NCBI GenBank assembly: GCA_001920875.1
Contig: MNKP01000024.1
Span: forward strand, 5,990-29,989
Length of the DNA: 24,000 bases
Direction: 5' to 3'
DNA from: Acidobacteria bacterium 13_1_20CM_2_55_15
Lineage (GTDB): Bacteria > Acidobacteriota > Terriglobia > 20CM-2-55-15
Shown: positions 1 through 20,411 of the stretch, piece by piece
Layout of the letters: each line of letters begins with the position of its first letter
How positions within the stretch are numbered: the first letter of the stretch is position 1
The notes under the pieces: generated by a model
Databases searched by the model: none
The model's input: only the letters and a program-made list of their open reading frames with translations
Told to the model about the DNA's origin: nothing
Position numbers and translations under genes: made by a program

Positions 1-12
1 GGATGCAGATCC

Positions 13-285: not shown

Positions 286-339
286 ACGGACAAAGGCGAG
301 AATGATCTACGTGCGACTGCGCCATCTGCGGCAGGATAG

Positions 340-2828: not shown

Positions 2829-3066
2829 TCGCGATCGCCTGTTGCTCTGCGGCGTCGTGTTGCTTCTCGCCCAACCAGCGTGGTCGCAGCGCGCTGTCTT
2901 CAGCGGCGTCCAGATACGATTCAGCAAGAGCGGCAAGGATCGTAAGCTGATTGAATCTTCAGGCTCGTTGATATACAAAACGGTGCTTTCACGAAACGCG
3001 AAAGAGATCGTGATGTATGAAGTGCAGGGCTCATACTACTCGGACTGGAAACGAAAGACGCCCTAA
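2800..3066 (+). CDS. small secreted hypothetical protein (88 aa)
   Basis: This uses an internal ATG of track ORF 2734..3066. From there it reads MRYGKQIKTNRDRLLLCGVVLLLAQPAWSQ, a typical signal peptide with an AWS-Q cleavage site. GGAG lies immediately upstream. It overlaps the preceding gene's end by 29 nt. Confidence 0.55.
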   Translation: MRYGKQIKTNRDRLLLCGVVLLLAQPAWSQRAVFSGVQIRFSKSGKDRKLIESSGSLIYKTVLSRNAKEIVMYEVQGSYYSDWKRKTP

Positions 3067-3218
3067 TCAACCTCAGATGTTGCAAGCCCATCGAACTCCG
3101 ACACTTTGAACCCGGTGGTATTGAAGGCAAATCCAAACAATCACAACGGATGGCCCGGGGCGTTAGGTAGAGGCCCCCACGTCTGCGTCGCAGTGCGATT
3201 AAGTTTGCCGAATCACTG

Positions 3219-3719
3219 ATGCGCTCATATAATTCGCGCCACATGTACCACCTGCCGGACCTTTTCTCCATGGGCTGGGGCAAAGTCCGAAGGGTCTTTC
3301 TCATCGCGTTTCGCAAGAAACGCGTAATCGCGAAGCTGGATCGCCGCCGCGGCGCCTGCACCCGGTGCGGTGCGTGCTGCAAGATTCTATTTAAGTGTCC
3401 CGCCTACGACGAGTCGGACGGCAATCCCAAGTGCCTCATCTACGACGATCGTCCAGGCGTTTGCAGTCTCTTCCCGCTCGATGAGAAAGACTTGCGAGAC
3501 AGGAACATCGTAATGCCCGGGACGAAGTGCGGTTTCTATTTCGAGCACGGCTCCCGTTCGGAGGTAGAGCGGCGCGAGACGATGCCGCTCCGGTGGGGAC
3601 CGTCGAAGAACCGAGGCGCGAACAACGGCAAGAGCCGAATCGTGACCGGGACGTTCGCGATCCTCTGGTCGTTCTTCCTCAAGCCATCAGAGAACGCAAA
3701 CCGAAGTGAGAAGCTTTGA
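3219..3719 (+). CDS. YkgJ-family cysteine-cluster protein (CxxCxxCC putative Zn/Fe-chelating domain)
   Basis: CTRCGACC, followed by CLIYDDRPGVCSLFP, matches the CxxCxxCC family (Pfam PF03692). The start is uncertain; in-frame Met codons also occur at residues 9 and 18. Confidence 0.8.
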   Translation: MRSYNSRHMYHLPDLFSMGWGKVRRVFLIAFRKKRVIAKLDRRRGACTRCGACCKILFKCPAYDESDGNPKCLIYDDRPGVCSLFPLDEKDLRDRNIVMPGTKCGFYFEHGSRSEVERRETMPLRWGPSKNRGANNGKSRIVTGTFAILWSFFLKPSENANRSEKL

Positions 3720-3827
3720 TGCCGAATGAGTGCAGCGCTACTTAGCCGAGCGCGCCTATACAAACGTCGACGATGAGCGGCGGCGGCTGCATCACCACGC
3801 AGAGCATCTGTTAAGGAAATAGCATAC

Positions 3828-3887
3828 CCGAGACGACAAAACCGAATTTTGGGGGAACGAGTTCCAAAGTCTCGGATTTCTGATTTT
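3828..3887 (+). promoter_or_regulatory. structured element or weak terminator between the YkgJ-like gene and desaturase 1
   Basis: CCGAGAC (3828-3834) pairs with GTCTCGG (3869-3875). The stem encloses two small hairpins (AAAA..TTTT and GGAA-CGAG-TTCC). A T-rich tail ATTTCTGATTTT follows. Confidence 0.3.
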
Positions 3888-4947
3888 GCGCATCGATGAA
3901 AGTTGGACCCATCCTGTCCTGCCCATATGCGATATAACCTCCACGAGTAAAAACAAGCGTGTCCCTGTGAGTACGTTCGCGGGGAATTCCCGGCGCAACG
4001 TATTGGCTCCACCCCCGGCAGCCTGCATCGCACTCAGGCCTTCGGATAAGCTTGGCCTCCTCCATACTGCCGGGGTTGCAGCGACAACCCTTGCCGGTTT
4101 GGCCATGTCCCGTTTGGGGGGCATTCGTTGGTTCGGCGGTCAGGTTCTCTTGGCTGTGAGCCTCGTGCAGTGGTTCATTTTGCTTCACGAGTGCGGACAT
4201 GAAACGCTGTTTCGGCGCGGCCCGCTGAACACCTTGGTCGGACGCACAGCGGCATTTTTCAGCGGGATCCCGTTTATCTGCTGGAAGCGCGTGCATGCCA
4301 AGCATCATCGCTGGACCGGATGGCAAGATCTGGATCCGACAACCGCTTCACTGGTACCGCGGCCTCTCAGCCCCCTCGAACGATCGGTGATCCACATCAG
4401 TTGGAAATATTGGGTACCGACGTTTTCGGTGCTTTATCGCGTGAATAACTATTGGAATGTGCTTCGCCTGCGCAAGTTGTTCGGCCCAAGCCGGGAGTGG
4501 CGGCAAATGAGGTTGGGCGCAATCGGACTTCTGTCGCTGTATTCCATAACTATTTATCTCGTAGGCGTGCGCGGTGTCATCGAAATGGTTGGGTTGGCTG
4601 TCTTCCTCGCTCTGGTCTGTGAAGACCCGTTGATCCTGAGCCAGCACACGCACATCCCTCAGCACGTCAGCCGTGGGGTCAATGCTCTTCCATTCGCTGC
4701 GTTGGAACAGGAGGAGTTCACTCGTTCGCTACGTTTTCCTGCGTGGGTGTCGAAGTTTGTGCTTTTCAATTTCGATGCGCATGAACTTCATCATATGTAC
4801 CCCTTCGTTCCCGGCTACCACCTTCGGCGAATTCCGTACGACGGTGTGAATGAAATCCATTGGTGGCGATGGCTCACTTTGGCGAAACGGATTCGTGGCG
4901 AAGAATTTCTCTTCCGAAACCAAAATGACACTGGCATCTACATCTAA
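3886..4947 (+). CDS. membrane fatty-acid desaturase family protein (HECGH type)
   Basis: Three His boxes are present: HECGH, HAKHH and HELHH. Hydrophobic segments surround them (Pfam FA_desaturase PF00487 pattern). The start is uncertain: TTG 3886 is the first possible start, and in-frame alternatives are GTG 3967, TTG 4003 and ATG 4105. Confidence 0.85.
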   Translation: MRIDESWTHPVLPICDITSTSKNKRVPVSTFAGNSRRNVLAPPPAACIALRPSDKLGLLHTAGVAATTLAGLAMSRLGGIRWFGGQVLLAVSLVQWFILLHECGHETLFRRGPLNTLVGRTAAFFSGIPFICWKRVHAKHHRWTGWQDLDPTTASLVPRPLSPLERSVIHISWKYWVPTFSVLYRVNNYWNVLRLRKLFGPSREWRQMRLGAIGLLSLYSITIYLVGVRGVIEMVGLAVFLALVCEDPLILSQHTHIPQHVSRGVNALPFAALEQEEFTRSLRFPAWVSKFVLFNFDAHELHHMYPFVPGYHLRRIPYDGVNEIHWWRWLTLAKRIRGEEFLFRNQNDTGIYI

Positions 4948-5542
4948 CTCCGGGAGTGCCGCCGCCGAGCCCTTGGCTTGCGCGGTCTTCATCGTCGTCG
5001 CCTTTATCCTGTCCGGCGCCGCGCATGTGCTGTGGCTGCGGAGCGCGGCTTCTATGCGATTCAGTTTTCCAATCGATTGCGGCCTTTCTCTCCGCGGCAA
5101 GCGTATCTTCGGCGACCACAAGATGTCTCGGGGTTTCGTGGTCATAGTCCCTGCTACAGGCGCGGCATTTCTAATGCTCTATGTCTTCGTTCGCACTGCG
5201 GCTCCCGCCTTTGCTGCACAATTGTGGTCTGCCGCTCCGTGGCAATATGCAGCCTTCGGCCTCTGGGCTGGTTTCGGCTTCATGGCTGGCGAACTGCCGA
5301 ATTCGTTCGTGAAGCGGCGACTGGAGATTCCGCCTGGTCGACTGCCCGCGCATCCCTCAGCTCGATGGGTTTGTTTAGTTGCCGATCGCGTCGATTCGAT
5401 TCTGGGAATGCTGGGCGCATTGAGCGTCGTTGTTTCCGTTCCAACATTGACATGGATCTACGTGATCCTGGTGGGAGCTGGAATCCACTGGACATTTAGC
5501 GTCGTGCTATTTGCATTGGGGGTGAAGGAGAGAATGGCATGA
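4925..5542 (+). CDS. CarS-family (CDP-archaeol synthase-like, DUF46) integral membrane cytidylyltransferase
   Basis: PIDCGLSLRGKRIFGDHKMSRGF matches the CarS D.G...G.r.fG..KT.rG block. GELPNSFVKRRLEI followed by ADRVDS matches the G(D/E)..SF.KRR and D-rich blocks. There are about five hydrophobic helices. I placed the start at internal ATG 4925 (MTLAS...), which overlaps the desaturase end by 23 nt. Confidence 0.75.
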   Translation: MTLASTSNSGSAAAEPLACAVFIVVAFILSGAAHVLWLRSAASMRFSFPIDCGLSLRGKRIFGDHKMSRGFVVIVPATGAAFLMLYVFVRTAAPAFAAQLWSAAPWQYAAFGLWAGFGFMAGELPNSFVKRRLEIPPGRLPAHPSARWVCLVADRVDSILGMLGALSVVVSVPTLTWIYVILVGAGIHWTFSVVLFALGVKERMA

Positions 5543-8160
5543 GCGCGACAGGAGTGTTCTCTCAACGAAGTCTTGTTACCTGCAGTCTCAATAACGCGCG
5601 CGACCTGAGTGAAGTGGGCAACAAGGCTCATAACCTCAGTCGCATGTTGAAGCTCGGACTGAACGTTCCAGCCGGATTTGTGATCACGAAAACCGCCTTT
5701 GACTTGTTTTGCGAGGCCAACGGTATCGATCTCGGGCAGGAGTCGAAGCCGGATTTGCAAGGCGCAATGATCCCGCGAGTGATTTTCGAAGAACTCTTGG
5801 AACTTCGGTACGCATGTCTGCCGTCCGGACCAGTGGTTGTTCGAAGCTCAGGCATTGGTGAGGATGGCATCAACGCTTCGTTCGCCGGTCAATTGGATTC
5901 CATCCTTCACGTCGAAACTGCCGAAGAAATAGAACGCGCCGTCTTGGCGTGTTGGTCCTCTTATTGGAACGAACGCGTGCTTTGTTACCAACGCACCAAA
6001 GGCGTCCGGTTACGAGGGATGGCCATCATCGTCCAGGCGCAAGTGACGTCTTCTCTGTCGGGCGTCCTTTTCACGGAGGCGCCTCAAGGGCGCGGGCAAC
6101 AAGACGAGATCTGCGTCGAGTATTGCGCTGGCTTTGGCGATGCTCTCGTGTCGGGGCTCGTGAATCCCGGCCGCTTTCGAATCTCTAAAACAGACGGCCG
6201 CTATACCATTGATGAATCCACGACAACATTGGATTCGATAGCGGTACAGTTCCCGTTCGAGGGGCAGCAAATTGCGACATTAGCGCGCGCGGCTGACATT
6301 TTGGAGGCCCACTTCGGGTGGCCCCAGGACGTCGAATGGACGATTGACGATTGCGGTGAATTGTTTCTACTACAATCCCGTCCGATCACCGCGCAGGCTT
6401 CTGTATTCCGTTCTCAAATCCTCTGGTCGAATGCCAACGTCAACGAAAACTTTCCTGCTCCCATAACGCCATTTCTTTATTCGATCGCGCGCGAAGGCTA
6501 CTACCACTACTTTCGGAATCTTGCAAAAGCCTTCGGTCTGTCCGCGAGCCGCATCCGGGCGATGGAACATTCTCTTCGGTATCTTGTCGGAGTCCATCAC
6601 GCCCGGATTTACTACAACCTGACGAGCATTCACTCGGTGCTTCGAATGGCGCCATTCGGCGAAGAGTTGGCTGAGTTTTTCAACGACTTCGTTGGCGTGG
6701 ACGCCATGGCCCCGGTCAGACCTGCGCCGAACAGATCGCGGTGGTTCCAGGCATTGGAGCTCTGCAGGATTGGGATCAAGACGACATGGCAGTACGCACT
6801 TCTGGCACGACGCGTCGAGCAATTCGAGCGCTGCGCCGACGATTGGGCACGCACGACAGTCCCGGCGGACCTTCAAAGCCAATCCTTGCTCGCACTCCGT
6901 GACGATCTGCGCCGTTTTATGGAGATCCGCTGTCATCGATGGACGAATGCTTCGCTGGCGGATGCGGCGTCGATGATTTGCTACGGGGTTTTGAAGCTGT
7001 TGTTGCGCAGTACATATCCTGATGCCGGAGAATCCGCGCTTCACAATAATTTGCTGAAAGGGCTTGGCGGCGTTGTCAGTGTGAAGCCTGCGATTGACTT
7101 GTGGGAACTGTCCCGAAAAATTCTGGCCGATCCCGAAACGGCGCGGTGGTTTAGGTATAGCGAAAGCCGCGACCTCATGCGCGCACTCCCGGCGGAACCG
7201 AAACGGCAGTGGCTGTTTGCGGAAGTGAATGACTATCTCGAACGATGGGGATTCCGGTTTTCCGGCGAACTGATGTTGACACAGCCCAGCTTTCAGGAGG
7301 ACCCAGCGCCTCTATTCGACATGTTGAAAACGTACCTAGACGCTAAAGATGCGGCACCGATCGAAGCCGTCCAGCAGCTCGAATACGAACGAATCTCCGC
7401 CACTGCAAACCTTCTCAATGACCTTCGCCGGACGAAGCGAATTCCCAGAGTACCGCGATGTCTTCAGGCGCCGCTTATGCGTCTCGCATTGAACGCAACA
7501 CGGCGGGCTATCCAACTCCGTGAGCGAGTACGGTCAAAGCAGGCGCTCCTTTATAACGGCTGCCGGCGAATTGCGCTCGCAATTGGCAAACAGCTTGTTC
7601 GTGCGGGCACGTTCGTGAATGCCGACGACATCTTTTTCCTGACGTACCAGGAGTTAGATGAATTCCTCACCGGGAACGCGATGTTTCCGGGCATCGTCGC
7701 GGAGACTGTTGCGCTTCGAAAGCGTGCGCATGAAGTGAGTAGCGATTCTTCGGCGCCGGATATCTTCACTTTATCCGAAGGCGCCTACCGGCCAACCGAA
7801 ACGCATGGCAGCGGTGACCGGCCACCTATGCCGTCGGCTATGGACATGTCGGGTATCGGTGCATGCGGTGGGCAAGTGTGTGCGCGAGCGACGGTGCTTG
7901 GAAGCGTGGCGGACGCGCACCTGCTCTCGGTTGGGGACATTCTGGTGACGCGCCAGACTGATCCCGGTTGGGCTCCGGTTTTCTCTTTGATTCGCGGATT
8001 AGTCATCGAAAGGGGCGGCATGCTTTCTCATGGGGCAATCATCGCCAGAGAGTTCGGCCTGCCCTGCGTAGTGGGTGTGAGAAATGCTACATCGGTAATT
8101 CGTCAAGGTTCCTTGCTATCGATCGATGGAGATCGAGGACATGTTCGAATCTTGGATTGA
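5539..8160 (+). CDS. PEP-utilising phosphotransferase with PpsA/rifampicin-phosphotransferase-like architecture (873 aa)
   Basis: The N-terminal PPDK_N/ATP-grasp region has the motifs EVGNKAHNLSRMLKLGLNVPAGFVIT and VVVRSSGIGEDGINASFAGQLDS. The C-terminal swivelling His domain reads TDPGWAPVFSLIRGLVIERGGMLSHGAIIAREFGLPCVVGV. The start overlaps the upstream stop as ATGA, and GAAGGAG lies 8-14 nt upstream. Confidence 0.9.
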   Translation: MSATGVFSQRSLVTCSLNNARDLSEVGNKAHNLSRMLKLGLNVPAGFVITKTAFDLFCEANGIDLGQESKPDLQGAMIPRVIFEELLELRYACLPSGPVVVRSSGIGEDGINASFAGQLDSILHVETAEEIERAVLACWSSYWNERVLCYQRTKGVRLRGMAIIVQAQVTSSLSGVLFTEAPQGRGQQDEICVEYCAGFGDALVSGLVNPGRFRISKTDGRYTIDESTTTLDSIAVQFPFEGQQIATLARAADILEAHFGWPQDVEWTIDDCGELFLLQSRPITAQASVFRSQILWSNANVNENFPAPITPFLYSIAREGYYHYFRNLAKAFGLSASRIRAMEHSLRYLVGVHHARIYYNLTSIHSVLRMAPFGEELAEFFNDFVGVDAMAPVRPAPNRSRWFQALELCRIGIKTTWQYALLARRVEQFERCADDWARTTVPADLQSQSLLALRDDLRRFMEIRCHRWTNASLADAASMICYGVLKLLLRSTYPDAGESALHNNLLKGLGGVVSVKPAIDLWELSRKILADPETARWFRYSESRDLMRALPAEPKRQWLFAEVNDYLERWGFRFSGELMLTQPSFQEDPAPLFDMLKTYLDAKDAAPIEAVQQLEYERISATANLLNDLRRTKRIPRVPRCLQAPLMRLALNATRRAIQLRERVRSKQALLYNGCRRIALAIGKQLVRAGTFVNADDIFFLTYQELDEFLTGNAMFPGIVAETVALRKRAHEVSSDSSAPDIFTLSEGAYRPTETHGSGDRPPMPSAMDMSGIGACGGQVCARATVLGSVADAHLLSVGDILVTRQTDPGWAPVFSLIRGLVIERGGMLSHGAIIAREFGLPCVVGVRNATSVIRQGSLLSIDGDRGHVRILD

Positions 8161-8788
8161 GACTTTTCGGCTTTACCGGCGCGAGCGATTCCCGCTCCGA
8201 ATATTTGCTCTTGTGGCAGTGGTCTTAACCCTTGCAGCTTTCGTGGAAGGCATACCGCATGACTGGTTCGAGGTCCTTCTCTCATGGATGGCGAGCGTAC
8301 TCCTGCTGCTCCAGTTCCGTATCTGGGATGATCTCGGCGACCGGAATCACGACGCCGCTCATCATCCTGACCGTGTCCTTTCGCGTTGCCATCGCGTTTC
8401 TGCATTCTACCTACTTCTTGCCTTCATTGGTTTGTCGAATTGGATCGTTTTGCTACTGCTCGGTCACTCGACGATTCCTTTTCTTCTGGTCTGCGCCGCC
8501 GCATCCTTTTGGTATACGCACGTCGACGGGGCGTTGCGCCGCGGCATTGCGGGACGGCATGTGTTGCTGTTGAAGTATCCGGTATTCGTCTGGCTGATCG
8601 CTCCGTCTCACCCGCCTGAATTGATTTCATCGATGGCTATCGTTTATCTCAGCGGCGCAATTTATGAACTACTCCATGATCGTGAGATTCGCTCGCGTCC
8701 TCAGGCGAGGCTTCTCGTTGCAATTGAGGTCTGTGCGCTCGGCGGCATCGCAGCCGTAGTGCTACGGGTCTTGGGAGAATCACTATGA
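8126..8788 (+). CDS. polytopic membrane protein with a UbiA-type Asp-rich motif (short UbiA-like prenyl/alkyl-transferase candidate)
   Basis: About six hydrophobic helices. FRIWDDLGDRNHD fits the first UbiA-family motif (N/D)DxxDxxxD. I could not identify a clear second DxxxD motif. At 220 aa it is shorter than typical UbiA enzymes. ATG 8141 is an alternative start. Confidence 0.6.
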   Translation: MEIEDMFESWIETFRLYRRERFPLRIFALVAVVLTLAAFVEGIPHDWFEVLLSWMASVLLLLQFRIWDDLGDRNHDAAHHPDRVLSRCHRVSAFYLLLAFIGLSNWIVLLLLGHSTIPFLLVCAAASFWYTHVDGALRRGIAGRHVLLLKYPVFVWLIAPSHPPELISSMAIVYLSGAIYELLHDREIRSRPQARLLVAIEVCALGGIAAVVLRVLGESL

Positions 8789-9753
8789 GTACGGCAACCG
8801 CATTTAAGCCGCTCTTCGAGAATTTTGTTTTTGAGACCGTCTCGTGCTACTCCTGCGGTAGCGCGTCCAGCAAGGAGTTCATCGTTGCTCAGGATGATCT
8901 GACGGGCAAACCGGGAAGCTTCAGGTTCGTTACTTGCCAGGATTGCGGGCTGACGTACCAAAATCCTCGAATCCGAATCGATCGAATCAAATCCTATTAC
9001 GACGACGAGTACATCGCGCACCGCAAGAAGACCGACTGGGGGCGTCTCACCTGGTTTTACAACTGGGTGATGGATAGGCATGACATCGATAAAGATCGAA
9101 TCATCCGCAGGTATGTTGAGCTGGGTCCGCAAAGCGAGATTCTCGATGTGGGCTGCGCCGTAGGCACTTTCCTCCAGAAGATGCGGACGCTCTACGATGC
9201 ACGTGTTTCAGGAGTCGACTTCAAAGACCTTTCGCACAGCTCCACGCTGGACGGAGTCGAGTTTCACTGCGGGCTTTTTTATAACCAGCGTCTCGCGAGC
9301 GGCCGCTTCGATCTTGTAACGATGTGGCACTTCCTCGAACATGATTATGATCCTTTGCGAACGCTCTTGATGGCGAAGAGAGTGTTGAAGCCGGAAGGGC
9401 GCCTCGTGATTGAAGTGCCTCGGCTGGATAGCGTCACTTTCCGTTTATATCGTGAGCGTTGGCCTGGCTTGCAGGCTCCGCAGCACACGGTTCTATTTGA
9501 GAGAAGGACACTACTAAATCTCATCGAAAAATGCGGTCTGGAAGTCGTGGACTATCTCCCTTACGGCGCTTTCCCGCCTTACTTCTACATCTTCGCCGGC
9601 GCAGCATTCAAGATTCTCAAAGGTCGTGGTCTCAATCTTTCGAAGGCCATCGTTCCTTATTTTCTGGGGCAGATTCTCCTGCTGCCCCTGTTGATGGCGG
9701 AGCGCCAACTCAATCTCGCGATGCAAACCGTCATTTGCAGGAGGAAACCATGA
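8785..9753 (+). CDS. class I SAM-dependent methyltransferase with an N-terminal Cys4 zinc ribbon
   Basis: CYSCGS...CQDCGLTYQNP forms the zinc ribbon. ILDVGCAVGTFL is SAM motif I, and LKPEGRLVIEVP is the post-II/III region. The start overlaps the upstream stop as ATGA. Confidence 0.9.
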   Translation: MSTATAFKPLFENFVFETVSCYSCGSASSKEFIVAQDDLTGKPGSFRFVTCQDCGLTYQNPRIRIDRIKSYYDDEYIAHRKKTDWGRLTWFYNWVMDRHDIDKDRIIRRYVELGPQSEILDVGCAVGTFLQKMRTLYDARVSGVDFKDLSHSSTLDGVEFHCGLFYNQRLASGRFDLVTMWHFLEHDYDPLRTLLMAKRVLKPEGRLVIEVPRLDSVTFRLYRERWPGLQAPQHTVLFERRTLLNLIEKCGLEVVDYLPYGAFPPYFYIFAGAAFKILKGRGLNLSKAIVPYFLGQILLLPLLMAERQLNLAMQTVICRRKP

Positions 9754-10571
9754 GCTCTGTAATCAGAGAAGCGAAGGCAAAAACTGGAATGCTGAACAAT
9801 CCTGAAGTACAAGAATCGCTCAGTATCCCTGATTTTCCTCAGCAGCGATGGCGTCCGTATTTTCTATTGGTCGCAAGCAGCGTGCTGTTGACGTTCTGCG
9901 CCGCCGTCATGTTCCTCGTCGCCTTATTTACAGGATTCCAATTGCGGCGGTTCTACTCCGAAGTGTTGGGTCGGCGGCTGGGAAAGGCCGTCCTGACTTT
10001 GTGCGGCGTCCGGATCGAGCAGCATGGACCGGCCCCCCTGCCGAATATTCAAACGATCTTTATCGCGAACCACACGTCTACGCTGGATGTGTTTATCCTT
10101 CTCGCCCTGGGATTGCCTCGAACACGATTCTTCCTCAAACGTAAATACAGGCTGATTCCTCCACTCGCGGTCATCAGTTATCTCGTCGGTGTTTTCTTTA
10201 CGCCGCCCCAAACCAACCGTGCGAAGCGCGTGCGCTGTTTCCAACATGCCGAAGACGTGTTGCGGCGAACCGGCGATTCTGTTTTCTTGAGTCCAGAAGG
10301 AACGCGAATCACCTCGGGACAGATTGGGCCATTCAACAAAGGCGCTTTTCATCTGGCGACGGCCCTGCGGGCGCCCATCGTTCCTATCTTTATCGTCATT
10401 CCAAGGAACATCAACCCCGGCCGGGGATTTGCGGCGCTTCCCGGCGTAGTTCATGTTTACTTTCAATCTCCGATTCCGACGACAGACTGGAAGCTTAGTG
10501 ATCTGGATAGAAACAAGACTGCCGTTCGAGACTACTTTGCTGGATTGAACGTGACCTTAGGACTGAGATGA
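9750..10571 (+). CDS. lysophospholipid / 1-acyl-sn-glycerol-3-phosphate acyltransferase (PlsC/AGPAT family)
   Basis: NHTSTLD is the HX4D motif, FLSPEGTR is the PEGTR motif, and APIVPIFI is also present. There is an N-terminal TM helix. I used internal ATG 9750 of track ORF 9531..10571; it has GGAGGA 4 nt upstream and overlaps the methyltransferase stop as ATGA. Confidence 0.9.
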   Translation: MSSVIREAKAKTGMLNNPEVQESLSIPDFPQQRWRPYFLLVASSVLLTFCAAVMFLVALFTGFQLRRFYSEVLGRRLGKAVLTLCGVRIEQHGPAPLPNIQTIFIANHTSTLDVFILLALGLPRTRFFLKRKYRLIPPLAVISYLVGVFFTPPQTNRAKRVRCFQHAEDVLRRTGDSVFLSPEGTRITSGQIGPFNKGAFHLATALRAPIVPIFIVIPRNINPGRGFAALPGVVHVYFQSPIPTTDWKLSDLDRNKTAVRDYFAGLNVTLGLR

Positions 10572-12328
10572 TTCCAAACCAGTTTCGAACCTTGGCCGAT
10601 GTGCTTCGGTATCGCACTGAAACGCAGGCATTCGAGGCCGCCTATACATTTTTGAATGACGGTGAAGCCGAAGGCCGCACCATCACGTATCGTGATCTCG
10701 ATTTTCAAAGCCGAGCGCTTGCAGTAATGTTGCGTGACTGGCGCATACAGCGTCCGTTGCTGGTCTATCCTCCTGGGCTCGATTTCATCGTGTCTTTCTT
10801 CGCCTGCATTTATGCCCGCATCACACCTGTGCCTGCAGGTCTCGCTCATATCATGCGCCTCGGCCGCTCCTTGACACGCCTTGCCGCCGTGGCGCGTGAT
10901 GCAGACGCGGATGCCGTTCTCAGTGTTACGCGAGTCATTGACCGAGCGTTCACTGATCCGGATTTCATGAATCGATCGCAGGAGCTCGGTCGAATGCGAT
11001 GGCTCGCGACCGATCGCTGTGATGAAGCTCTGGGCGCATGTTATCAAGATGCTTTGCTGCCATCCGACATGCCGGCGTTCATACAGTACACGTCCGGTTC
11101 GACATCGATTCCAAAAGGAGTCGTCGTCACTCATCGAAACCTGCTTCACAATTTGAGTTACTGCAACGAGGTGGAGGAGAACGGCCGCGATACGATCTCC
11201 GTCTCATGGCTGCCTCACAGCCACGATATGGGCTTGATCGAAGCTATCCTGCTCCCGACTTTCGCGGGCTATCGCGCCTACCTCATGTCTCCCGCATCAT
11301 TTCTCCGCCGGCCGGCGCGGTGGCTCGAGGCTATTACACGCTTTCGCGCGACCAACAGCGGTGGGCCCAATTTCGCTTTCGATCTGTGCGTTGAAAAGAT
11401 TTCCGCCGAAGAACAGGAGAATCTAGATCTCACCTCCTGGCGCGTCGCTTACAACGGCTCGGAGACGATTCGGAGTGAGACTTTATTGCGGTTTCGCCAA
11501 AGATTCGAACGCTCCGGATTCCGCTGGAACGCATTTTATCCGGTTTATGGGCTGGCTGAATCGACACTCCTGGTTTCGAGCGGTCATGCGGCAGATGTGC
11601 CAGTGGTTCGGGAACTCGATGCAGAGGCGTTAGGTCGAGGCATCGTGGCAGCTCCGCAACACCGCACTGCCAAGACTATCAGCGTCGTCGCGAGCGGCAG
11701 GACACAGTCCCATACTCGAATCGTCATCGCGGATCCGGAAACACTTGTCAAGTGTGGCGCAAATGAAGTCGGCGAAATCTGGATCGCGGGACCCAGCGTT
11801 GCCAATGGTTACTGGCAGAAGCCGGCCGAAACCGAGGCGGCGTTTCATGCCTATTTCGAGGACAGCCAGGATGGGCCATTCTTACGAACGGGCGATCTCG
11901 GCTTCTTGTCGGATGGACAGCTCTTTGTGACCGGGCGGATCAAAGACGTTATAAATATTCGCGGATTCAAACATTATCCGCAAGACATTGAGCACACTGT
12001 TAGTCAGAGTCCTGCCGCCATCTTAATGAGTGGCTGTGCCGCATTCGCCGTCGATGGAGATGGAACCGAGCAACTCGCCGTTGTCATCGAGGTCCTTCCG
12101 AAGTTGTCTCAGGATTTCGACGATTGGAGCGATCAGGCCATAACCGCTATCCAGAGTGCGGTAACGGAACGGCACGGAATAAGGATCCAGTCGCTGGCGC
12201 TTGCGCCTTACGGATCGATTCCGAAAACGACGAGCGGAAAACTTCAACGGCAACTGTGCCGCAGGTGGTTCATCGACGGTAGCCTGCAGACGGTTCGCAT
12301 CTGGAGTCACGACGGAGAACGAGCATGA
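10568..12328 (+). CDS. fatty acyl-AMP ligase (FAAL-type adenylating enzyme)
   Basis: FIQYTSGSTSIPKGVVVTHRNLLHN is the AMP-binding core. VSWLPHSHDMGLI is a motif typical of FAALs such as FadD32. GDLGF...GRIKD is also present. The start overlaps the upstream stop as ATGA. Confidence 0.9.
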   Translation: MIPNQFRTLADVLRYRTETQAFEAAYTFLNDGEAEGRTITYRDLDFQSRALAVMLRDWRIQRPLLVYPPGLDFIVSFFACIYARITPVPAGLAHIMRLGRSLTRLAAVARDADADAVLSVTRVIDRAFTDPDFMNRSQELGRMRWLATDRCDEALGACYQDALLPSDMPAFIQYTSGSTSIPKGVVVTHRNLLHNLSYCNEVEENGRDTISVSWLPHSHDMGLIEAILLPTFAGYRAYLMSPASFLRRPARWLEAITRFRATNSGGPNFAFDLCVEKISAEEQENLDLTSWRVAYNGSETIRSETLLRFRQRFERSGFRWNAFYPVYGLAESTLLVSSGHAADVPVVRELDAEALGRGIVAAPQHRTAKTISVVASGRTQSHTRIVIADPETLVKCGANEVGEIWIAGPSVANGYWQKPAETEAAFHAYFEDSQDGPFLRTGDLGFLSDGQLFVTGRIKDVINIRGFKHYPQDIEHTVSQSPAAILMSGCAAFAVDGDGTEQLAVVIEVLPKLSQDFDDWSDQAITAIQSAVTERHGIRIQSLALAPYGSIPKTTSGKLQRQLCRRWFIDGSLQTVRIWSHDGERA

Positions 12329-14997
12329 GTTCCGCTATAACCGTTGCATCAGGCCAGATAGAAGAATTCCTTCAGCATCGTGTCGCGGAGATCGCTGGAG
12401 TGACGCCATCCAGCGTCAGCTTGAGCACGGCCTTATCGCGCCTCGGAGTGGATTCGCTCGGTATGCTTCACCTGATCGAGGGCATCGAAAGCGAATTGGG
12501 AACAGAAATTCCAAACGCGATCTGCTTGGACGGTCTCACCATTCAGTCGCTTGCAGAAGTTTTGGCTGCTTGTGTACCGGGCGCACGGCGCGCAACCGTT
12601 AATCTGGCCCAAGAGATGGCGGCCGACAGCAAACTTCCGGAGGACATTCGCCCTGCGCCAGGCCCAGCCGTGGCGCTGCCTCGATCGATTCTGCTAACCG
12701 GTGCGACGGGCTTTCTTGGGGCCTACTTGCTACGTTCGCTTCTGCGAAACACGAAAGCGCAGGTTGTTTGCCTGGTCAGGCCAGACAAAGACGACGGTCA
12801 AACCAGGGTTCGGCGGAATCTCGAGCGCTACGGAATCTGGGATGACGGATTCGACCATCGCATTGCGATACTCGAGGCAGACATTACGCAGCCGCATTTG
12901 GGCCTGCCACCTTCTTCATTTGACGCCCTGGCAATCACCATCGACGTCGTGTTTCACGCAGCGGCGGCGGTGAATTGGGTGCACTCTTATACGCGGCTGC
13001 GGCACACGAACGTGCTGGCCCTTCGCGAGTTGTTGGGCTTGGCCTGCCGCCACAGGTCAAAACCCTTTCATCTCATTTCGACTCTGGCTGTGTGCTACTC
13101 GATGACAGGTTCGCGAGAGGTTTCAGAGACTGACGATGTGTTTGCAGATGTGGCTGGAATCCATCTGGGATATGCGCAAAGCAAATGCGTTGCGGAGTCC
13201 CTCGTGAAAACCGCAGCGCAGCGCGGCTTGCCGGTATCGATCGTTCGGCCCGCTCTTATCTCAGGCAACAGCGTTACGGGCATCTCCAATACCGAGGACT
13301 TCGTTTCGAAGTTTATCAGGGCGTGCGTACAAATGGGCGCGGCCCCGGATCTTGACTGGCTCCTGGACTTTTTGCCCGTCGACTTTGCGGCGGAAGCGAT
13401 TACGCGCCTTGTATTGAACGGAAATTTGGAGCCATTTCGAGTTTTCCATTTAGCGAATCCAAAGCTCAGACATTGGCGCGAGTTGATATTATGGATGAAC
13501 CTGTTTGGATATCGCGTCGAACTGCTTCACTACCAGGATTGGCTGCATCGGCTCAATGCCGATGTACGTAATGATAGGGAACATCCGTTACGAGACCTTC
13601 TCCCATTTTTTCTACATCGTCCTGCAGGACAGAAGGGACTTTATCTGCCTCAGTTGTACGAGGAATCCCGGCGGCGCAAAGCACGGTTCGATGCCACGCG
13701 GGAGCTGCTGGAGCGCGAAGATCTGACGTGTCCGCAATTGTCCACTCGTTTACTGGATCGTTACTTCGAATCCTACATTGATCGTAAGTTTCTGCCGCCA
13801 GTCGAAAGGTCCCATCGAACGGACCCTCCTGCCGCTGATGAACATCTGCAATTCGACGCGTGCTTCTTTAACTCTGTGATTGGAAACCACGAGGTGACCC
13901 GCGCGCGACCGCTTGAATTCTCCGGTGGTCATAGCGTGATCGGCGAACTGACATCGTGGAAGTACGGCCACTCGATCGGGCTGCACGGCTATCGTCTCGA
14001 ATTTGGGGACGGGCAACGTGAGCGTGACGTGATCGTGAAGGTGAAAGCGCGCGATAAGGAAGTAACGGCCGTCGGGCAAACCTTAGCAGCATTGTGCAGT
14101 CCCGCTCTCGGCTGCGCCTACGAGCGTTTCTCCGATTGTCTAGGCTTGACCGGGTGTGATACTCGCGAACTCTCTGTCTACCAGCAGGATGATGCTCGTT
14201 TCCGTCGATTCACTCCGGGGTTTTACGGTGGACGATCGGATCATGCGCGAACGGTTCTGGTCCTGGAAAAGCTGTCGCGGTTGGAAATGATGGACTCGGT
14301 CGAGTCTGTACACACTTGGCCTGCCAAATACATCGAAGCGGCCATTCAAGGAATCGCGCGGCTCCACGCCATTTGGTACGGAGTGCAACTGGGGCGTGCC
14401 GTGAACCAATCGTGGTCTAATCAGGTTCTCCATCGAAAACAGTTTGCGGAGGCCAGGGATCTTTGGGTTGCCCTGGCGGACCACGCCTGCCCGATTTTTT
14501 CGCCTTGGATAGGTCCCGAATGCGGCGCGATACAATCCGTTCTCATCGAGCGCCTGGATGAGTTCTGGCGGCTTCATGAAGGCATGTCGCATACCTTGAT
14601 CCATAATGATTTCAATCCTCGAAACCTCGGATTCCGACGCTCAGGCAGCGAATTGAGCCTTTGCCTCTACGATTGGGAACTCGCGACGGTCGATCTTCCG
14701 CAACATGACCTTGCCGAGCTCCTGTGCTTCGTACTTGGAGCAGACGTGCAACGGTCCGATCTCCTTCGTTACATCGAAATGCACCGGACGGCATTACAAG
14801 ACGCGACGGCACAACAGATTGATGACACTTCTTGGGTGCTCGGCTTTTGCCTATCGCTGTATGACCTGATGATCAATCGGCTGCCAGCTTATGCAATGAT
14901 TCACCGTTTTAATGAGCAGCGTTTTCTCGAACGTGTAATTCGTACATGGAAGGGAATATTCGATGTCGTATCCAGCACGATATATTCGCCTTTGTAA
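12325..14997 (+). CDS. tri-domain fusion: acyl carrier protein + thioester reductase (NAD-binding SDR) + APH/choline-kinase-like phosphotransferase
   Basis: The ACP domain has LGVDSLGM, with the phosphopantetheine Ser at residue 44. The reductase domain has LLTGATGFLGAYLL from residue 123 and YAQSK (YxxxK). The C-terminal kinase fold has LIHNDFNPRN (HxDxxxxN, His at nt 14602) and LYDWE. The start overlaps the FAAL stop as ATGA. Confidence 0.9.
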   Translation: MSSAITVASGQIEEFLQHRVAEIAGVTPSSVSLSTALSRLGVDSLGMLHLIEGIESELGTEIPNAICLDGLTIQSLAEVLAACVPGARRATVNLAQEMAADSKLPEDIRPAPGPAVALPRSILLTGATGFLGAYLLRSLLRNTKAQVVCLVRPDKDDGQTRVRRNLERYGIWDDGFDHRIAILEADITQPHLGLPPSSFDALAITIDVVFHAAAAVNWVHSYTRLRHTNVLALRELLGLACRHRSKPFHLISTLAVCYSMTGSREVSETDDVFADVAGIHLGYAQSKCVAESLVKTAAQRGLPVSIVRPALISGNSVTGISNTEDFVSKFIRACVQMGAAPDLDWLLDFLPVDFAAEAITRLVLNGNLEPFRVFHLANPKLRHWRELILWMNLFGYRVELLHYQDWLHRLNADVRNDREHPLRDLLPFFLHRPAGQKGLYLPQLYEESRRRKARFDATRELLEREDLTCPQLSTRLLDRYFESYIDRKFLPPVERSHRTDPPAADEHLQFDACFFNSVIGNHEVTRARPLEFSGGHSVIGELTSWKYGHSIGLHGYRLEFGDGQRERDVIVKVKARDKEVTAVGQTLAALCSPALGCAYERFSDCLGLTGCDTRELSVYQQDDARFRRFTPGFYGGRSDHARTVLVLEKLSRLEMMDSVESVHTWPAKYIEAAIQGIARLHAIWYGVQLGRAVNQSWSNQVLHRKQFAEARDLWVALADHACPIFSPWIGPECGAIQSVLIERLDEFWRLHEGMSHTLIHNDFNPRNLGFRRSGSELSLCLYDWELATVDLPQHDLAELLCFVLGADVQRSDLLRYIEMHRTALQDATAQQIDDTSWVLGFCLSLYDLMINRLPAYAMIHRFNEQRFLERVIRTWKGIFDVVSSTIYSPL

Positions 14998-15580
14998 TTT
15001 GCTGACGTACATCTCGCTATTGTGCAGCCTGCTGGCTGTCTTCGCCGCGCGGGAATACCGAAGCTGGGAGGCCGCCGGTTTATTGCTCGCGGTTTCCGCG
15101 CTCGCCGATACCTTCGATGGAAAATTCGCTCTGCTCTTCCAACGGACCGAGAACGAGAGCGAATTCGGCGCACAACTCGACAGTCTCGTTGACGCCGTTT
15201 CGTTTGGAATCGTGCCTGTCGTCTGCTTGCAGTCGCTCGTCCAATTCGATTCGGCCTCGGCTCGATTCGAGTTGCTGGTGGCTGCGTTTGTGTACGTTCT
15301 GTGCGCGGTGACCCGGCTTGGCTATTACAATCTACACCATCACGCGCAGTCCGGATTCATCGGACTGCCGACAACTCTAGCTGCTCTTTTGTGGTCGACA
15401 CTGTTCCTCACACATCCATCCGCGATACCCGTTGCTCTGATCTCTGTCCTCGTCGGCGGGGCGATGGTTTCGCCGTTGACCGTTTCCAGGCCGCGAGGTA
15501 TTGCAATGGGAGCGTACATGCTCTGGTTTCTGGTTGTATTTATTTCGTACACATACCGGTTCGTCGCCGGAATCTACTGA
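14963..15580 (+). CDS. CDP-alcohol phosphatidyltransferase family protein (small, PssA/archaetidylserine-synthase-like, divergent motif)
   Basis: DTFDGKFAL-x11-GAQLDSLVDAV resembles DGxxARx8GxxxDxxxD, but the Arg is replaced by Leu and the spacer is 11 residues. There are about six hydrophobic helices. It overlaps the previous gene by 35 nt. Confidence 0.8.
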   Translation: MSYPARYIRLCNLLTYISLLCSLLAVFAAREYRSWEAAGLLLAVSALADTFDGKFALLFQRTENESEFGAQLDSLVDAVSFGIVPVVCLQSLVQFDSASARFELLVAAFVYVLCAVTRLGYYNLHHHAQSGFIGLPTTLAALLWSTLFLTHPSAIPVALISVLVGGAMVSPLTVSRPRGIAMGAYMLWFLVVFISYTYRFVAGIY

Positions 15581-15583
15581 CCG

Positions 15584-16651
15584 ATGCGCGATAGCAGTGT
15601 TCGGGAGCTTCGAGCAGATCTGCAAAAACGAGGCTGTTACGAAAAGCACACGGCGCGGATCCTCTTCGACCTGAGCATCAGTGCTCTAATGGCGGCTGGT
15701 GGACTTGTGGTGTATCTCGCGGCTTCGGGATCAGTCGCGCGCACATGTGGTCTGATCGTGTGGACTGCAGGCAGCATCGGAATCGGCACTAACACACACA
15801 ATTCCTCTCATTATGCGACCGCCAAGAAACGCTGGGTAAACGAATTGCTGACCTATATCGGCTATCCTGTCTATTTTGGCCTGTCGGCGACCTACTGGTG
15901 GCACAAACATGTGCTTGTCCACCATAGCGCCCCGAATGTAATAGGCGTTGATGGCGACGCGGATCTGTCTCCATGGTTTGCAACTACAACGGATGAAGTT
16001 CGGCTATCGTCGGGAATGCGGAGGTTTTTCTATGTGCACCTCCAGCGATTCGTTTTTCCTGTCGCTATTTCCCTGACATTATTCAGCCAACAAATTGCCG
16101 GATACATCCATCTGGCTCGATCGCTTCGCAGCAAAAAGCGTCAGCTAGCGCACGGCGTCGACCTTGCCGCCCTGTTAGCGCACGTCGTCCTCACCCTGGG
16201 CATTCCGATGTTCTTCTTTAGTCCTTCGAACGTCATCGCATTCTACGTCCTACGCAATGCTCTCATGTCGTACGCGATGTTCTCGGTATTTGCTCCTGCG
16301 CACTTTCTTTCGGAAGCGTCACGGCTTGACAAGAACGTCGCACAGTTCGACTATCTGCTCACGCTGACTGCGACGACATTGAATTTCCGAATGGGACGCC
16401 TGGGAAGACTGTTGTGTTCCGGACTTGAATACCAGATCGAGCATCATCTTCTTCCCGATATTAGCTATGTCCACTATCCGGCTATCAGTAATTTAGTGGA
16501 GCAGTTCTGTAAGAGTCACGCGTTCCCCTACCGGCGATATCGATGGGAGTTCGCGTTGTGGCGTTCGCTATCCGCGGTTAGCAACCCATGCGAGATTGTG
16601 CGTGACGCGAGTGTCCTTCATTGGCCGGTAGGTGCCAAAGGCGCTGGCTAG
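15584..16651 (+). CDS. membrane fatty-acid desaturase family protein with a Q-type third His box (front-end-desaturase-like)
   Basis: His boxes are HNSSH, HKHVLVHH and QIEHH(LLP). A QxxHH third box is the hallmark of front-end and sphingolipid-type desaturases. There is no cytochrome b5 domain. It starts 3 nt after the upstream stop. Confidence 0.9.
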   Translation: MRDSSVRELRADLQKRGCYEKHTARILFDLSISALMAAGGLVVYLAASGSVARTCGLIVWTAGSIGIGTNTHNSSHYATAKKRWVNELLTYIGYPVYFGLSATYWWHKHVLVHHSAPNVIGVDGDADLSPWFATTTDEVRLSSGMRRFFYVHLQRFVFPVAISLTLFSQQIAGYIHLARSLRSKKRQLAHGVDLAALLAHVVLTLGIPMFFFSPSNVIAFYVLRNALMSYAMFSVFAPAHFLSEASRLDKNVAQFDYLLTLTATTLNFRMGRLGRLLCSGLEYQIEHHLLPDISYVHYPAISNLVEQFCKSHAFPYRRYRWEFALWRSLSAVSNPCEIVRDASVLHWPVGAKGAG

Positions 16652-20326: not shown

Positions 20327-20411
20327 CAAACAGTTTTGCCGTGGCTTTCATTTCGTAAACCCTTCCGCAAAGGCCGGATTGCCGCTCATGCCGGCCAGGG
20401 CCTTCTCGCGT

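Follow-up and report, generated by a model that had tools for sequence, protein, structure and literature searches.

A distant bacterial relative of archaeal CarS in a ten-gene acidobacterial lipid operon, a predicted cytidylyltransferase for a non-archaeol lipid phosphate

The window, a 24-kb stretch of DNA from a soil acidobacterium analyzed here as a whole, carries as the second of ten abutting genes one that encodes a genuine five-helix membrane protein of the Pfam CarS-like family, as first observed and now confirmed. The protein is not a CarS orthologue; it is a distant cousin in a separate clade, and it most likely CMP-activates a non-archaeol lipid phosphate that would be made by the neighboring kinase. 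Archaeal CarS CTP-activates membrane lipids and counts as a hallmark of the archaeal side of the lipid divide. In one study, bacteria carrying lipid genes of archaeal type were reported to lack CarS, and CdsA was assumed to take its place (PMC7852524); our own search of the literature found no published description either of the clade described here or of the ten-gene cluster.

The protein matches PF01864 (CarS-like; gathering cut-off 22 bits) with 41.8 bits (E 1.5e-10; HMM positions 29-172 of 175) and has no match at E ≤ 0.01 to PF01148 (CTP_transf_1, the CdsA family; cut-off 24 bits), so that the profile comparison proposed as a check in the original prediction bears out its assignment to the CarS rather than the CdsA family. 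Weak matches to PF01148 in a few clade members (e.g., P0254, 28.6 bits) are expected because the two Pfam families belong to one superfamily. The AF2 model (pLDDT 84.9, pTM 0.81) has five long helices, and its sole Foldseek match in the PDB is 5GUF, the archaeal CarS structure from Aeropyrum pernix (ApCarS; probability 1.00, target TM-score 0.71). Profile-profile alignment (hhalign) with 18 named archaeal CarS proteins gives a probability of 99.87% (E 8e-32), which together with the model places the CarS-family resemblance above chance. With CdsA the protein shares the CTP-transferase superfamily and an S-x-x-K-R ... D-x-x-D core, and the CdsA reaction is analogous to that of CarS (PMC9385802); however, our protein has ~200 residues and five helices and lies in a specialized operon, whereas CdsA usually occupies a housekeeping position and is a larger, nine-helix, dimeric enzyme (PMC7018664).

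The polar residues that vary little or not at all in archaeal CarS are fully conserved across the bacterial clade (27 close and 42 diverse members). Given as window/ApCarS chain numbering, they are D51/D41, K66/K57, E123/D100 (Glu in the window protein, Asp in archaeal CarS), K130/K107, R131/R108, D154/D122, D157/D125, H188/H157, and K201/K170, and the conserved polar residues of the putative CTP/metal-site motifs P-x-D, G-D-x-K, S-F-x-K-R-R, and D-x-x-D are kept. By analogy with the ApCarS literature, with roles drawn from reviews and the alignment, these residues probably bind CTP and metal. Both sequence blocks on which the original prediction relied are present: GE..NSFVKRRL exactly as quoted (residues 122-133), and the first block as D51-x-G53-x4-G58-x-RIFGD-x-K66-x2-RG, one spacer position off the quoted form.

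Against the CarS equivalog model (NF003114, NCBIfam) the protein scores 52.3 bits and fails the cut-off of 148, which makes a substrate other than the archaeal diether reasonable and agrees with the earlier view that the substrate is probably not an isoprenoid diether. The phylogeny with archaeal CarS that had been suggested as a check also sets the bacterial proteins apart: a neighbor-joining tree (distance-based, no bootstrap) cleanly resolves 52 clade members from the 18 named archaeal sequences, and mean identity between the two groups is 26%. The bacterial group, which we call the ELPNSF clade after its marker G-E-L-P-N-S-F-x-K-R, is large and separate and was found here in bacteria, with 979 cluster representatives (E ≤ 1e-3) and 582 metagenome stretches in which it was confirmed. 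One candidate member, L014 from Archangium, was rejected as a spurious 40-residue match, its ORF having no CarS-like domain and adjoining DabA/Mrp genes. The window protein and archaeal CarS (5GUF) thus have in common the Pfam family above cut-off, the five-helix fold, the conserved Asp/Lys/Arg/His set, an archaetidylserine-synthase/PssA-type CDP-alcohol transferase as neighbor, and probably also CMP-transfer chemistry. They differ in being only ~25% identical and reciprocally separate, in insertions that the window protein has downstream of the KRRL motif and in the segment linking helices 2 and 3, in the archaeal-invariant N-terminal P23/N28 (P..N) motif, which is absent from the window protein in the alignment, and in genomic context, which here is of the fatty-acid type (FAAL, ACP-reductase, PlsC).

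The CarS-like ORF runs in frame from its ATG to the TGA at 5540-5542 and encodes 205 residues. Alternative starts lie at GTG 4895, which database gene callers chose for the near-identical 215-residue proteins P0001 and P0002, and at ATG 4850; homologue conservation begins at about residue 12-15, numbered from ATG 4925. The stop codon of the upstream desaturase gene (4945-4947) falls inside the start of the CarS-like gene (23-nt overlap), and the CarS-like TGA overlaps the ATG of the downstream PEP-utilizer (kinase) gene as ATGA, with AGGAG 8 nt upstream of that ATG; the proposed translational coupling on both sides is therefore upheld. All ten genes lie on the plus strand (3886-16651; Table 1).

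Table 1. The ten genes of the operon, with positions in the window
Gene product	Position	Strand	Basis
Membrane fatty-acid desaturase/hydroxylase family (desat1)	3886..4947	+	PF00487, 82 bits
Predicted CarS-like membrane CTP-transferase, ELPNSF clade	4925..5542	+	PF01864 match
Rifampin-phosphotransferase/PigC-type ATP dikinase (RPH-type kinase)	5539..8160	+	PF01326 + PF00391
Short UbiA-fold membrane protein (~190-220 aa)	8126..8788	+	PF01040, 27.7 bits
SAM-dependent methyltransferase with N-terminal four-Cys ribbon	8785..9753	+	PF13489, 77.6 bits
PlsC-family acyltransferase	9750..10571	+	PF01553, 71 bits; H-x4-D and PEGTR motifs
FAAL (fatty acyl-AMP ligase)	10568..12328	+	PF00501 + DIP2-like C-terminal domain
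Tridomain ACP-thioester reductase-APH/EcKL-type kinase	12325..14997	+	PP-binding, NAD_binding_4 (219 bits), APH
PssA/archaetidylserine-synthase-like CDP-alcohol phosphatidyltransferase	14963..15580	+	PF01066, 55 bits
Second membrane desaturase/hydroxylase family gene (desat2)	15584..16651	+	PF00487, 83 bits

The first desaturase carries the His boxes HECGH, HAKHH, and HELHH, and its true start probably lies downstream of TTG 3886, because homologue alignments begin at ORF residues 42-82. The kinase next to the CarS-like gene has the full three-part architecture of the RPH/PigC family (ATP-grasp domain, substrate domain, and swivel-His domain, with the swivel histidine kept in the GGMLSHGAIIAREFGLP motif), and among PDB entries it matches Listeria RPH best (5fbs/5hv1, E 2e-62), but it reaches none of the equivalog cut-offs for RPH, PigC, and PEP synthase; its fusion or coupling to a membrane CTP-transferase suggests a lipid rather than an antibiotic as substrate. 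The short UbiA-fold protein, with the motif R-x-W-D-D-x-x-D-x-x-x-D ... H-P-x-R, matches only the N-terminal half of PF01040, below the cut-off of 34.2 bits, and 13 of 19 homologues match the same family. Its AF2 model (pLDDT 91.8) finds DGGGPS (6m31/7bpu) and other UbiA proteins as top folds, a ranking that does not discriminate among UbiA families.

Further downstream, the PlsC ATG at 9750 overlaps the methyltransferase stop. For the FAAL, the best lipid-annotated NCBIfam matches are FAAL subfamilies, all below their cut-offs, and the overall top match is an NRPS/PKS subfamily model. The reductase domain of the tridomain protein is closest to MxaA (E 4e-77), and the fused kinase domain carries the motif HNDFNPRN. 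The best NCBIfam matches of the PssA-like protein are archaetidylserine synthase and PssA (~85 bits, below cut-offs), and the second desaturase gene begins 3 nt after the CDP-alcohol transferase gene and ends the plus-strand run. The UbiA-fold gene, the PssA-like transferase, and the reductase-fused kinase domain had escaped the first reading of the sequence, and they bear directly on the mechanism. Among the Pfam and NCBIfam matches of the ORFs in the window there is no GGGPS, G1P dehydrogenase, or GGPP/polyprenyl synthase, consistent with the earlier description of the operon as fatty-acid-type and not isoprenoid.

The gene order recurs in ~30 loci, including 13 Acidobacteriota MAGs, some of them Pyrinomonadaceae. 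A genome scan with exact peptide words from the window CarS-like protein matched MAGs only, and a metagenome scan with a diverse alignment covered the best 80 loci, all at least 43% identical; more distant contexts were read from contigs encoding CarS-like fusion proteins. A desaturase gene precedes the CarS-like gene in 61 of 68 scorable loci, and an RPH-type kinase gene follows it in every one of 67. PlsC is found in all 32 loci and the UbiA-fold gene in 32 of 34, as well as in the distant clusters L097 and L099, while conservation within the cluster is highest for the methyltransferase gene (median identity 66% across loci, and 50-56% even in distant clusters). The CarS-like protein, the RPH-type kinase, and the UbiA-fold protein form an invariant core in four lineages; the methyltransferase stands beside this core in three of the four, the L099 contig ending before that point.

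The FAAL/ACP-reductase module, present in 28/28 scorable close-relative loci, behaves differently. A FAAL gene is absent from the distant clusters L095, L097, and L099, and such FAAL-less clusters keep PlsC and, where the contig extends far enough, the methyltransferase alongside the CarS-like, kinase, and UbiA-like genes. The original prediction had the operon driven by a FAAL, and this part of it does not hold: the FAAL gene is seventh of ten and is an add-on to the cluster, not its driver. The rest of that interpretation stands as to the family, the coupling, and the type of operon, and a non-diether substrate is reasonable.

Fusions in distant lineages add to this picture. PlsC is fused to the CarS-like domain in four representatives (P0193, P0210, P0254, and P0267), the first of which is fused to the RPH-type kinase as well; P0248 is a fusion to the RPH-type kinase, and in another branch P0261 has DgkA, a lipid kinase, fused in front of the CarS-like domain. 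We know of no report of an archaeal CarS counterpart to the PlsC, RPH-type kinase, or DgkA fusions. A CDP-alcohol transferase gene follows the reductase gene in 11/18 scorable close loci and adjoins the CarS-like gene in L096 (after a DgkA-CarS fusion) and L099; since it does not adjoin the cluster in the other 7/18, or in L095 and L097, the consumer of a CDP-lipid is not always visible.

We therefore favor, with moderate confidence, a CarS-like protein that would act as an integral-membrane CTP:lipid-phosphate cytidylyltransferase, converting a lipid monophosphate made by its partners, with CTP, into CDP-lipid and PPi in the manner of CarS and CdsA, on a substrate other than the archaeal diether. 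Family, fold, conserved polar residues, gene order, gene overlaps, and gene fusions are observed; the chemistry, the direction in which it runs, and the sequence of steps we infer as follows. The FAAL would charge the ACP domain of the tridomain protein with a fatty acid, which the MxaA-like reductase of that protein would release as a fatty alcohol; PlsC would add an acyl chain; the RPH-type kinase would phosphorylate the free hydroxyl of the lipid (or the fused APH kinase would do so, if the product is an alkyl phosphate); the CarS-like protein would add CMP; and the PssA-like transferase, where present, would exchange CMP for a head group, probably serine. Candidate lipid cores are an alkyl-acyl-glycerol phosphate, an acyloxy-alkyl phosphate, and a plain alkyl phosphate. 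A kinase upstream in the pathway is supported by the unbroken gene adjacency (67/67) and by the kinase fusions in P0193, P0248, and, with DgkA, P0261; an acylated substrate by the PlsC fusions and the presence of PlsC in 32/32 loci; a downstream consumer by the CDP-alcohol phosphatidyltransferase genes of the window operon, L096, L099, and the 11 close loci; and a substrate other than archaeol by the equivalog failure, the separate clade, the missing P23/N28, and the lack of isoprenoid and G1P genes in the window. The PlsC, RPH-type kinase, and DgkA fusions are consistent with in situ production of an acylated lipid phosphate, in keeping with the original suggestion of an alkyl-acyl glycerol phosphate or an alkyl phosphate.

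Several points weigh on the other side: a consumer of the CDP-lipid is not visible next to every cluster; the operon holds two further kinases, one RPH-type and one APH-type, which exceeds what the simplest scheme requires; the UbiA-fold protein accompanies the CarS-like protein in every lineage examined, yet has no role in the scheme; and cytidylyltransferase chemistry is not separable by sequence alone from that of CTP-dependent lipid kinases such as dolichol kinase, phytol kinase VTE5, and yeast Dgk1, which belong to the same CTP-transferase superfamily. If the CarS-like protein were itself a CTP-dependent lipid-alcohol kinase, it would join the RPH-type kinase in making a lipid diphosphate as alkyl or prenyl donor for the UbiA-fold protein, with methylation to follow, on the logic of the plant salvage route from phytol through phytyl-PP to prenylquinone or tocopherol. 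UbiA-fold enzymes require a diphosphate donor, and this scheme suits the invariant three-protein core, the DGGGPS and UbiA folds found by the UbiA-fold model, and the many clusters without an adjoining CDP-alcohol transferase. We nevertheless consider it unlikely. To our knowledge, all known CTP-dependent kinases are in PF01148 and none in PF01864, whose characterized members, as far as we know, are cytidylyltransferases only, and the residues common with ApCarS are retained. Furthermore, where a CDP-alcohol transferase gene comes after the DgkA-CarS fusion, the order reads naturally as kinase, cytidylyltransferase, and transferase, and the kinase scheme would make the APH domain on the reductase redundant and leave the PssA-like gene of the operon without a dedicated CDP substrate.

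The UbiA-fold protein could also form an ether bond on a glycerol phosphate backbone, in the manner of DGGGPS, in a hybrid or archaeal-type ether lipid that the CarS-like protein would activate and the PssA/archaetidylserine-synthase-like enzyme would complete with serine. By family or fold, three operon proteins match best DGGGPS, CarS, and archaetidylserine synthase, the three enzymes with which archaeal phospholipid synthesis ends, and the FAAL, an MxaA-like four-electron reductase, and a kinase would yield a fatty alcohol phosphate. In addition, the cluster occurs in Pyrinomonadaceae MAGs, ether and iso-diabolic lipids, bearing PE and PC head groups, make up >40% in cultured Pyrinomonas (PMC4644332), and Ger is missing from SD4 genomes (PMC13159169). 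Against this, the UbiA-like protein covers no more than the N-terminal ~60% of the profile and stays below the Pfam cut-off, its fold ranking is not discriminating, GGGPS and G1P dehydrogenase genes are absent from the window, and the FAAL and reductase are missing from distant clusters. A saturated alkyl diphosphate is, moreover, a poor electrophile for UbiA-type chemistry, and we hold an ether lipid of this kind to be rather improbable; if real, it would mean that bacteria have a pathway of archaeal logic, from which the alkyl glycerol ethers of acidobacteria might come.

Least probable of all, and in our view very unlikely, is an alternative CDP-diacylglycerol synthase that replaces or backs up CdsA on ordinary phosphatidate in phosphatidylserine/PE synthesis: the PssA-like neighbor, a DgkA fusion suggesting, for at least one branch, a route from DAG via PA to CDP-DAG, the weak PF01148 matches, and the partial cross-reactivity of bacterial CdsA and CarS (PMC7852524) would suit it, but the gene is locked in an 8-10-gene cluster whose FAAL, reductase, RPH-type kinase, UbiA-like protein, and methyltransferase are not needed for phosphatidate synthesis, and the close relatives recovered come from limited lineages rather than bacteria-wide.

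Gene order and fusions connect the clade with an acyltransferase, a UbiA-fold protein, and a lipid kinase, which defines a testable lipid-assembly module. Some host acidobacterial families are known for abundant ether and membrane-spanning lipids, a link of the cluster to these is possible, and its product may be an ether phospholipid. We entertain as a doubtful extension an unrecognized aerobic ether-phospholipid route in Acidobacteria (Pyrinomonadaceae/SD4 and Vicinamibacterales/SD6) that would follow archaeal logic with parts derived from fatty acids: a fatty alcohol, made and activated by the FAAL, ACP-reductase, and kinase, would be ether-linked by the short UbiA-fold protein, with PlsC supplying the second chain; after CMP activation of the resulting alkyl-acyl lipid by the CarS-like protein, the head group would be built by the methyltransferase together with the PssA/archaetidylserine-synthase-like enzyme. 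Such a route would bear on brGDGT-type ether-lipid synthesis in aerobic bacteria without Ger/PlsA, and an aerobic ether-forming step in ether-lipid acidobacteria matters for brGDGT palaeoclimate proxies. Roles for the methyltransferase in phospholipid N-methylation and in desaturase-coupled mid-chain methylation were both considered, and the evidence favors neither. Even if the product is a minor specialized phospholipid, the automatic annotation as "CDP-archaeol synthase" would prove misleading.

We also compared the operon with the elb ether-lipid cluster (elbA-E, MIBiG BGC0000871), defined by the multidomain ElbD with ElbB (HAD) and ElbE (NAD epimerase) (PMC9131029). Myxococcus xanthus ElbD combines an acyl-activating domain, an ACP, a fatty-acyl reductase, and an AGPAT/PlsC-type acyltransferase (PMC9131029), and all these catalytic parts are present in the window operon, but split over three genes (PlsC, FAAL, and ACP-reductase-kinase) and in a different order. 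Pfam finds no ElbB (HAD), ElbE/ElbA, or stand-alone NAD epimerase gene in the window. Elb-like clusters with DAG kinase and CDP-alcohol transferase neighbors have been reported in Acidobacteriota (bioRxiv 10.64898/2026.06.23.733905), and the elb descriptions consulted here make no mention of CarS-like, RPH-type kinase, UbiA-like, or methyltransferase genes (PMC9131029; bioRxiv 10.64898/2026.06.23.733905). We accordingly rejected identity with the known elb cluster: the domain content overlaps that of ElbD, but the architecture and the partner genes differ.

The CarS-like gene encodes a 205-aa hydrophobic protein with a slightly ambiguous start (ATG 4925, GTG 4895, or ATG 4850; GTG 4895 is the start in database proteins P0001 and P0002). 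In a profile search it matches the Pfam family PF01864 "CarS-like" (41.8 bits, cut-off 22, E = 1.5e-10), and the CdsA profile PF01148 gives no match at E ≤ 0.01, bearing out the original prediction of a CarS-family gene that is not a CdsA. Both sequence blocks quoted in that prediction are present, although the first was written one position too short. The proposed translational coupling on both sides also holds: whichever start is chosen, the gene begins inside the upstream desaturase gene, ahead of the desaturase stop at 4945-4947, and its TGA (5540-5542) overlaps the ATG (5539) of the next gene, with AGGAG 8 nt 5' of that ATG.

An AlphaFold model built from an alignment of 27 homologues has five long helices (pLDDT 84.9, pTM 0.81), and its sole PDB match is the CDP-archaeol synthase of Aeropyrum pernix, ApCarS (5GUF; probability 1.00, target TM-score 0.71, 22% identity), which is again the sole, weak match in a sequence search of the PDB (E = 0.025). 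We further compared profiles of 42 diverse relatives and of 18 archaeal proteins named CarS by NCBI, which align with 99.87% probability (E = 8e-32, 24% identity). At nine positions where the archaeal set has an invariant or consensus residue, the window's family shows no variation (window/ApCarS chain numbering: D51/D41, K66/K57, E123/D100, K130/K107, R131/R108, D154/D122, D157/D125, H188/H157, K201/K170), and the catalytic core therefore looks intact. Going by the CarS literature (PMC9385802), these residues would hold CTP and metal.

A distance tree (no bootstrap) cleanly separates the 18 archaeal CarS from 52 members of the window's family; identity between the two groups averages 26%. The window's family carries the signature G-E-L-P-N-S-F-x-K-R in most of its best 150 representatives, lacks the N-terminal P23...N28 motif that is invariant in archaea, and, compared with archaeal CarS, contains insertions following helix 2 and again following the KRRL motif. 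The protein is not a CarS orthologue, scoring 52 bits with the NCBI equivalog model for CarS, whose cut-off is 148. It is a Pfam CarS-like member that belongs neither to the CarS orthologous group nor to CdsA; the enzyme type is a familiar one, unlike the clade, the partners it keeps, and the substrate it probably uses.

CarS-like lies among ten abutting or overlapping plus-strand genes (about 3886 to 16651). Since the fatty acyl-AMP ligase (FAAL) is gene 7, the operon is not "driven by a FAAL", as had been suggested, in any positional sense. The rifampin phosphotransferase (RPH)-type kinase has Listeria RPH as its best PDB match (2e-62), the gene 8 reductase is closest to the alcohol-forming MxaA (4e-77), and the methyltransferase bears an N-terminal C-x2-C...C-x2-C ribbon. 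For the UbiA-like protein, the PF01040 match covers no more than the N-terminal 60% of the profile and scores below cut-off; 13/19 homologues give this match too. The protein's confident structure model (pLDDT 91.8) finds archaeal DGGGPS, a UbiA-fold enzyme, as best folds (6m31, 7bpu; probability 1.00), then other UbiA proteins, and the ranking among UbiA families is too close to name a subfamily.

Features of the window and of loci (L-numbers) with CarS-like relatives
Locus	Feature	Coordinates (strand)	Family, motif, or gene order
Window	Gene 1, membrane desaturase		PF00487
Window	Gene 2, CarS-like	4925-5542 (+)	PF01864
Window	Gene 3, RPH-type kinase, 873 aa		Architecture of rifampin phosphotransferase complete; swivel histidine present
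Window	Gene 4, short UbiA-fold protein, 220 aa		
Window	Gene 5, SAM methyltransferase	8785-9753 (+)	PF13489
Window	Gene 6, PlsC acyltransferase		H-x4-D present
Window	Gene 7, FAAL		PF00501
Window	Gene 8, ACP + thioester reductase + APH-type kinase		Kinase motif HNDFNPRN present
Window	Gene 9, CDP-alcohol phosphatidyltransferase		Nearest NCBIfam models are archaetidylserine synthase and PssA, both at about 85 bits and short of cut-off
Window	Gene 10, second desaturase		PF00487
Window	DUF4833 gene	16648-17136 (-)	
Window	289-aa ORF	17503-18372 (-)	
Window	DUF1186 gene	18373-19254 (-)	C-terminal SEC-C metal-binding motif
Window	21-bp tandem repeat	20693-20788	GACCGCTACAATGACAAAAAA
Window	PAP2 lipid phosphatase gene	23266-23913 (-)	Undecaprenyl-diphosphatase-like, below cut-offs
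L001	PAP2 homologue	11-289 (-)	Upstream of cluster
L095	CarS-like + PlsC + RPH-type kinase fusion	2339-6025	Divergent desaturase / fusion / 235-aa membrane protein / methyltransferase / PlsC
L096	DgkA-CarS fusion	10001-11020	Fusion / CDP-alcohol transferase
L097	CarS-like-RPH-type kinase fusion	10001-12895	Divergent desaturase / fusion / short UbiA-like / methyltransferase / PlsC / opposite-strand full-length UbiA (same in L098)
L097	Full-length UbiA prenyltransferase gene, 304 aa	15030-15944 (-)	PF01040
L099	CarS-like-PlsC fusion	1709-2968	Fusion / 310-aa UbiA-like / RPH-type C-terminal part / CDP-alcohol transferase
L100	Region compared with L101	18113-20105	
L101	Region compared with L100	17434-20103	

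Neighbor counts were taken at fetched loci with at least 43% identity that reach far enough to score; as these loci are mutually related, the counts show what one lineage has kept and do not amount to independent events. The RPH-type kinase follows CarS-like in 67/67 and a desaturase precedes it in 61/68, with UbiA-like (32/34), methyltransferase (33/34), PlsC (32/32), FAAL (28/28), and ACP-reductase-kinase (28/28) genes beyond, and a CDP-alcohol transferase after the reductase gene in 11/18. The methyltransferase is by far the most conserved (median identity 66% across loci), at 62-72% identity in loci whose CarS-like proteins share about 50%, and still at 50-56% in distant clusters, whose CarS-like proteins share about 35%. 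Window genes upstream of the operon (1341-3719) are not conserved in the other loci. The near-identical contigs L100 and L101 encode an identical CarS-like protein (P0106); in one of them, gene calling divides the ACP-reductase-kinase into a reductase gene and an APH gene, probably because of a frameshift in the assembly and not a true division.

The most informative evidence comes from distant versions and fusions. CarS-like is fused to PlsC and an RPH-type kinase in P0193 (1228 aa), to the kinase in P0248 (964 aa), to PlsC in P0210, P0254, and P0267 (about 400 aa), and to DgkA in P0261. FAAL and reductase are absent from the distant clusters L095, L096, L097/L098, and L099; the recurring core is therefore CarS-like, a lipid kinase, PlsC, and a UbiA-fold protein, usually accompanied by a methyltransferase and a desaturase. 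In the window's lineage, the FAAL/ACP-reductase-kinase module is added to this core. A CDP-alcohol transferase is present in some versions and missing from others. The RPH-type protein of L099 apparently has no PPDK_N ATP-grasp part. In L097, the full-length UbiA gene is additional to the short UbiA-like gene and lies tail-to-tail with the PlsC gene, near GDSL lipase, second desaturase, and enoyl-CoA hydratase genes.

Given the kinase-CarS and DgkA-CarS fusions and the adjacent CDP-alcohol transferases, the simplest reading is a three-step line in which a kinase would convert a lipid alcohol to a lipid phosphate, CarS-like would convert this to a CDP-lipid, and the CDP-alcohol transferase would form the phospholipid. 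The same lipid would receive an acyl chain from PlsC. FAAL and the MxaA-like reductase would, in the window's lineage, provide a fatty alcohol, which the fused APH kinase could turn into an alkyl phosphate. On this scheme we lean, by a little, toward a cytidylyltransferase role for CarS-like, on a lipid phosphate that is not archaeol-based and that the cluster itself produces; its substrate may be an alkyl-acyl-glycerol phosphate, an acyloxy-alkyl phosphate, or a plain alkyl phosphate. The scheme leaves the UbiA-fold protein without a role and has one kinase too many. The recurring core would be well explained if CarS-like were instead a lipid kinase dependent on CTP and acted together with the RPH-type kinase to provide the UbiA-fold protein with a lipid diphosphate, but the CDP-alcohol transferase, DgkA fusion, and APH domain fit this poorly, and we consider it unlikely. 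Three operon proteins look like the enzymes of the final three steps in archaea, and the host families are noted for ether lipids: in Pyrinomonas, ether and iso-diabolic lipids exceed 40%, with PE and PC head groups (PMC4644332), and Ger is missing from SD4 genomes (PMC13159169). An ether pathway of archaeal logic, with the UbiA-fold protein making the ether bond, is nonetheless rather improbable: the chemistry of saturated alkyl donors is unfavorable, and the genome hits are MAGs, linking no cultured ether-lipid producer to the cluster. So specialized a cluster would be hard to explain if CarS-like were simply a CdsA substitute working on phosphatidate, and we regard this reading as quite improbable.

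An exhaustive search for CarS-like relatives returned 979 cluster representatives at E ≤ 1e-3, of which 294 pass E ≤ 1e-10, and a metagenome scan for the family signature at least 582 confirmed stretches, three soil contigs being identical to the window. The 13 genuine genome hits all come from MAGs of Acidobacteriota, which are assigned to Pyrinomonadaceae or Vicinamibacterales or are unclassified. The literature search found no description of bacterial PF01864 proteins, the ten-gene cluster, or CarS-like fusions. We rejected identity with the elb cluster, though the parts of ElbD also occur here.

Downstream, the DUF4833 gene is convergent with the last desaturase gene (4-nt overlap); the literature searched holds no mention of DUF4833. 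The DUF1186 gene is directly followed by the 289-aa ORF, which has no family match, and both appear unrelated to the lipid operon. The PAP2 gene lies ~6.6 kb downstream of the operon, and its presence near both the window and L001 clusters may be coincidence. Between a 154-aa ORF and an amidase gene, a non-coding stretch (20400-21100) contains 4.6 copies of the 21-bp repeat (TRF score 122-158), with extra partial copies near 20838 and 20882, and is packed with degenerate GGAAATAATCGT/GAAGATAATCAT words that give rise to spurious Ile/Ser-rich ORFs.
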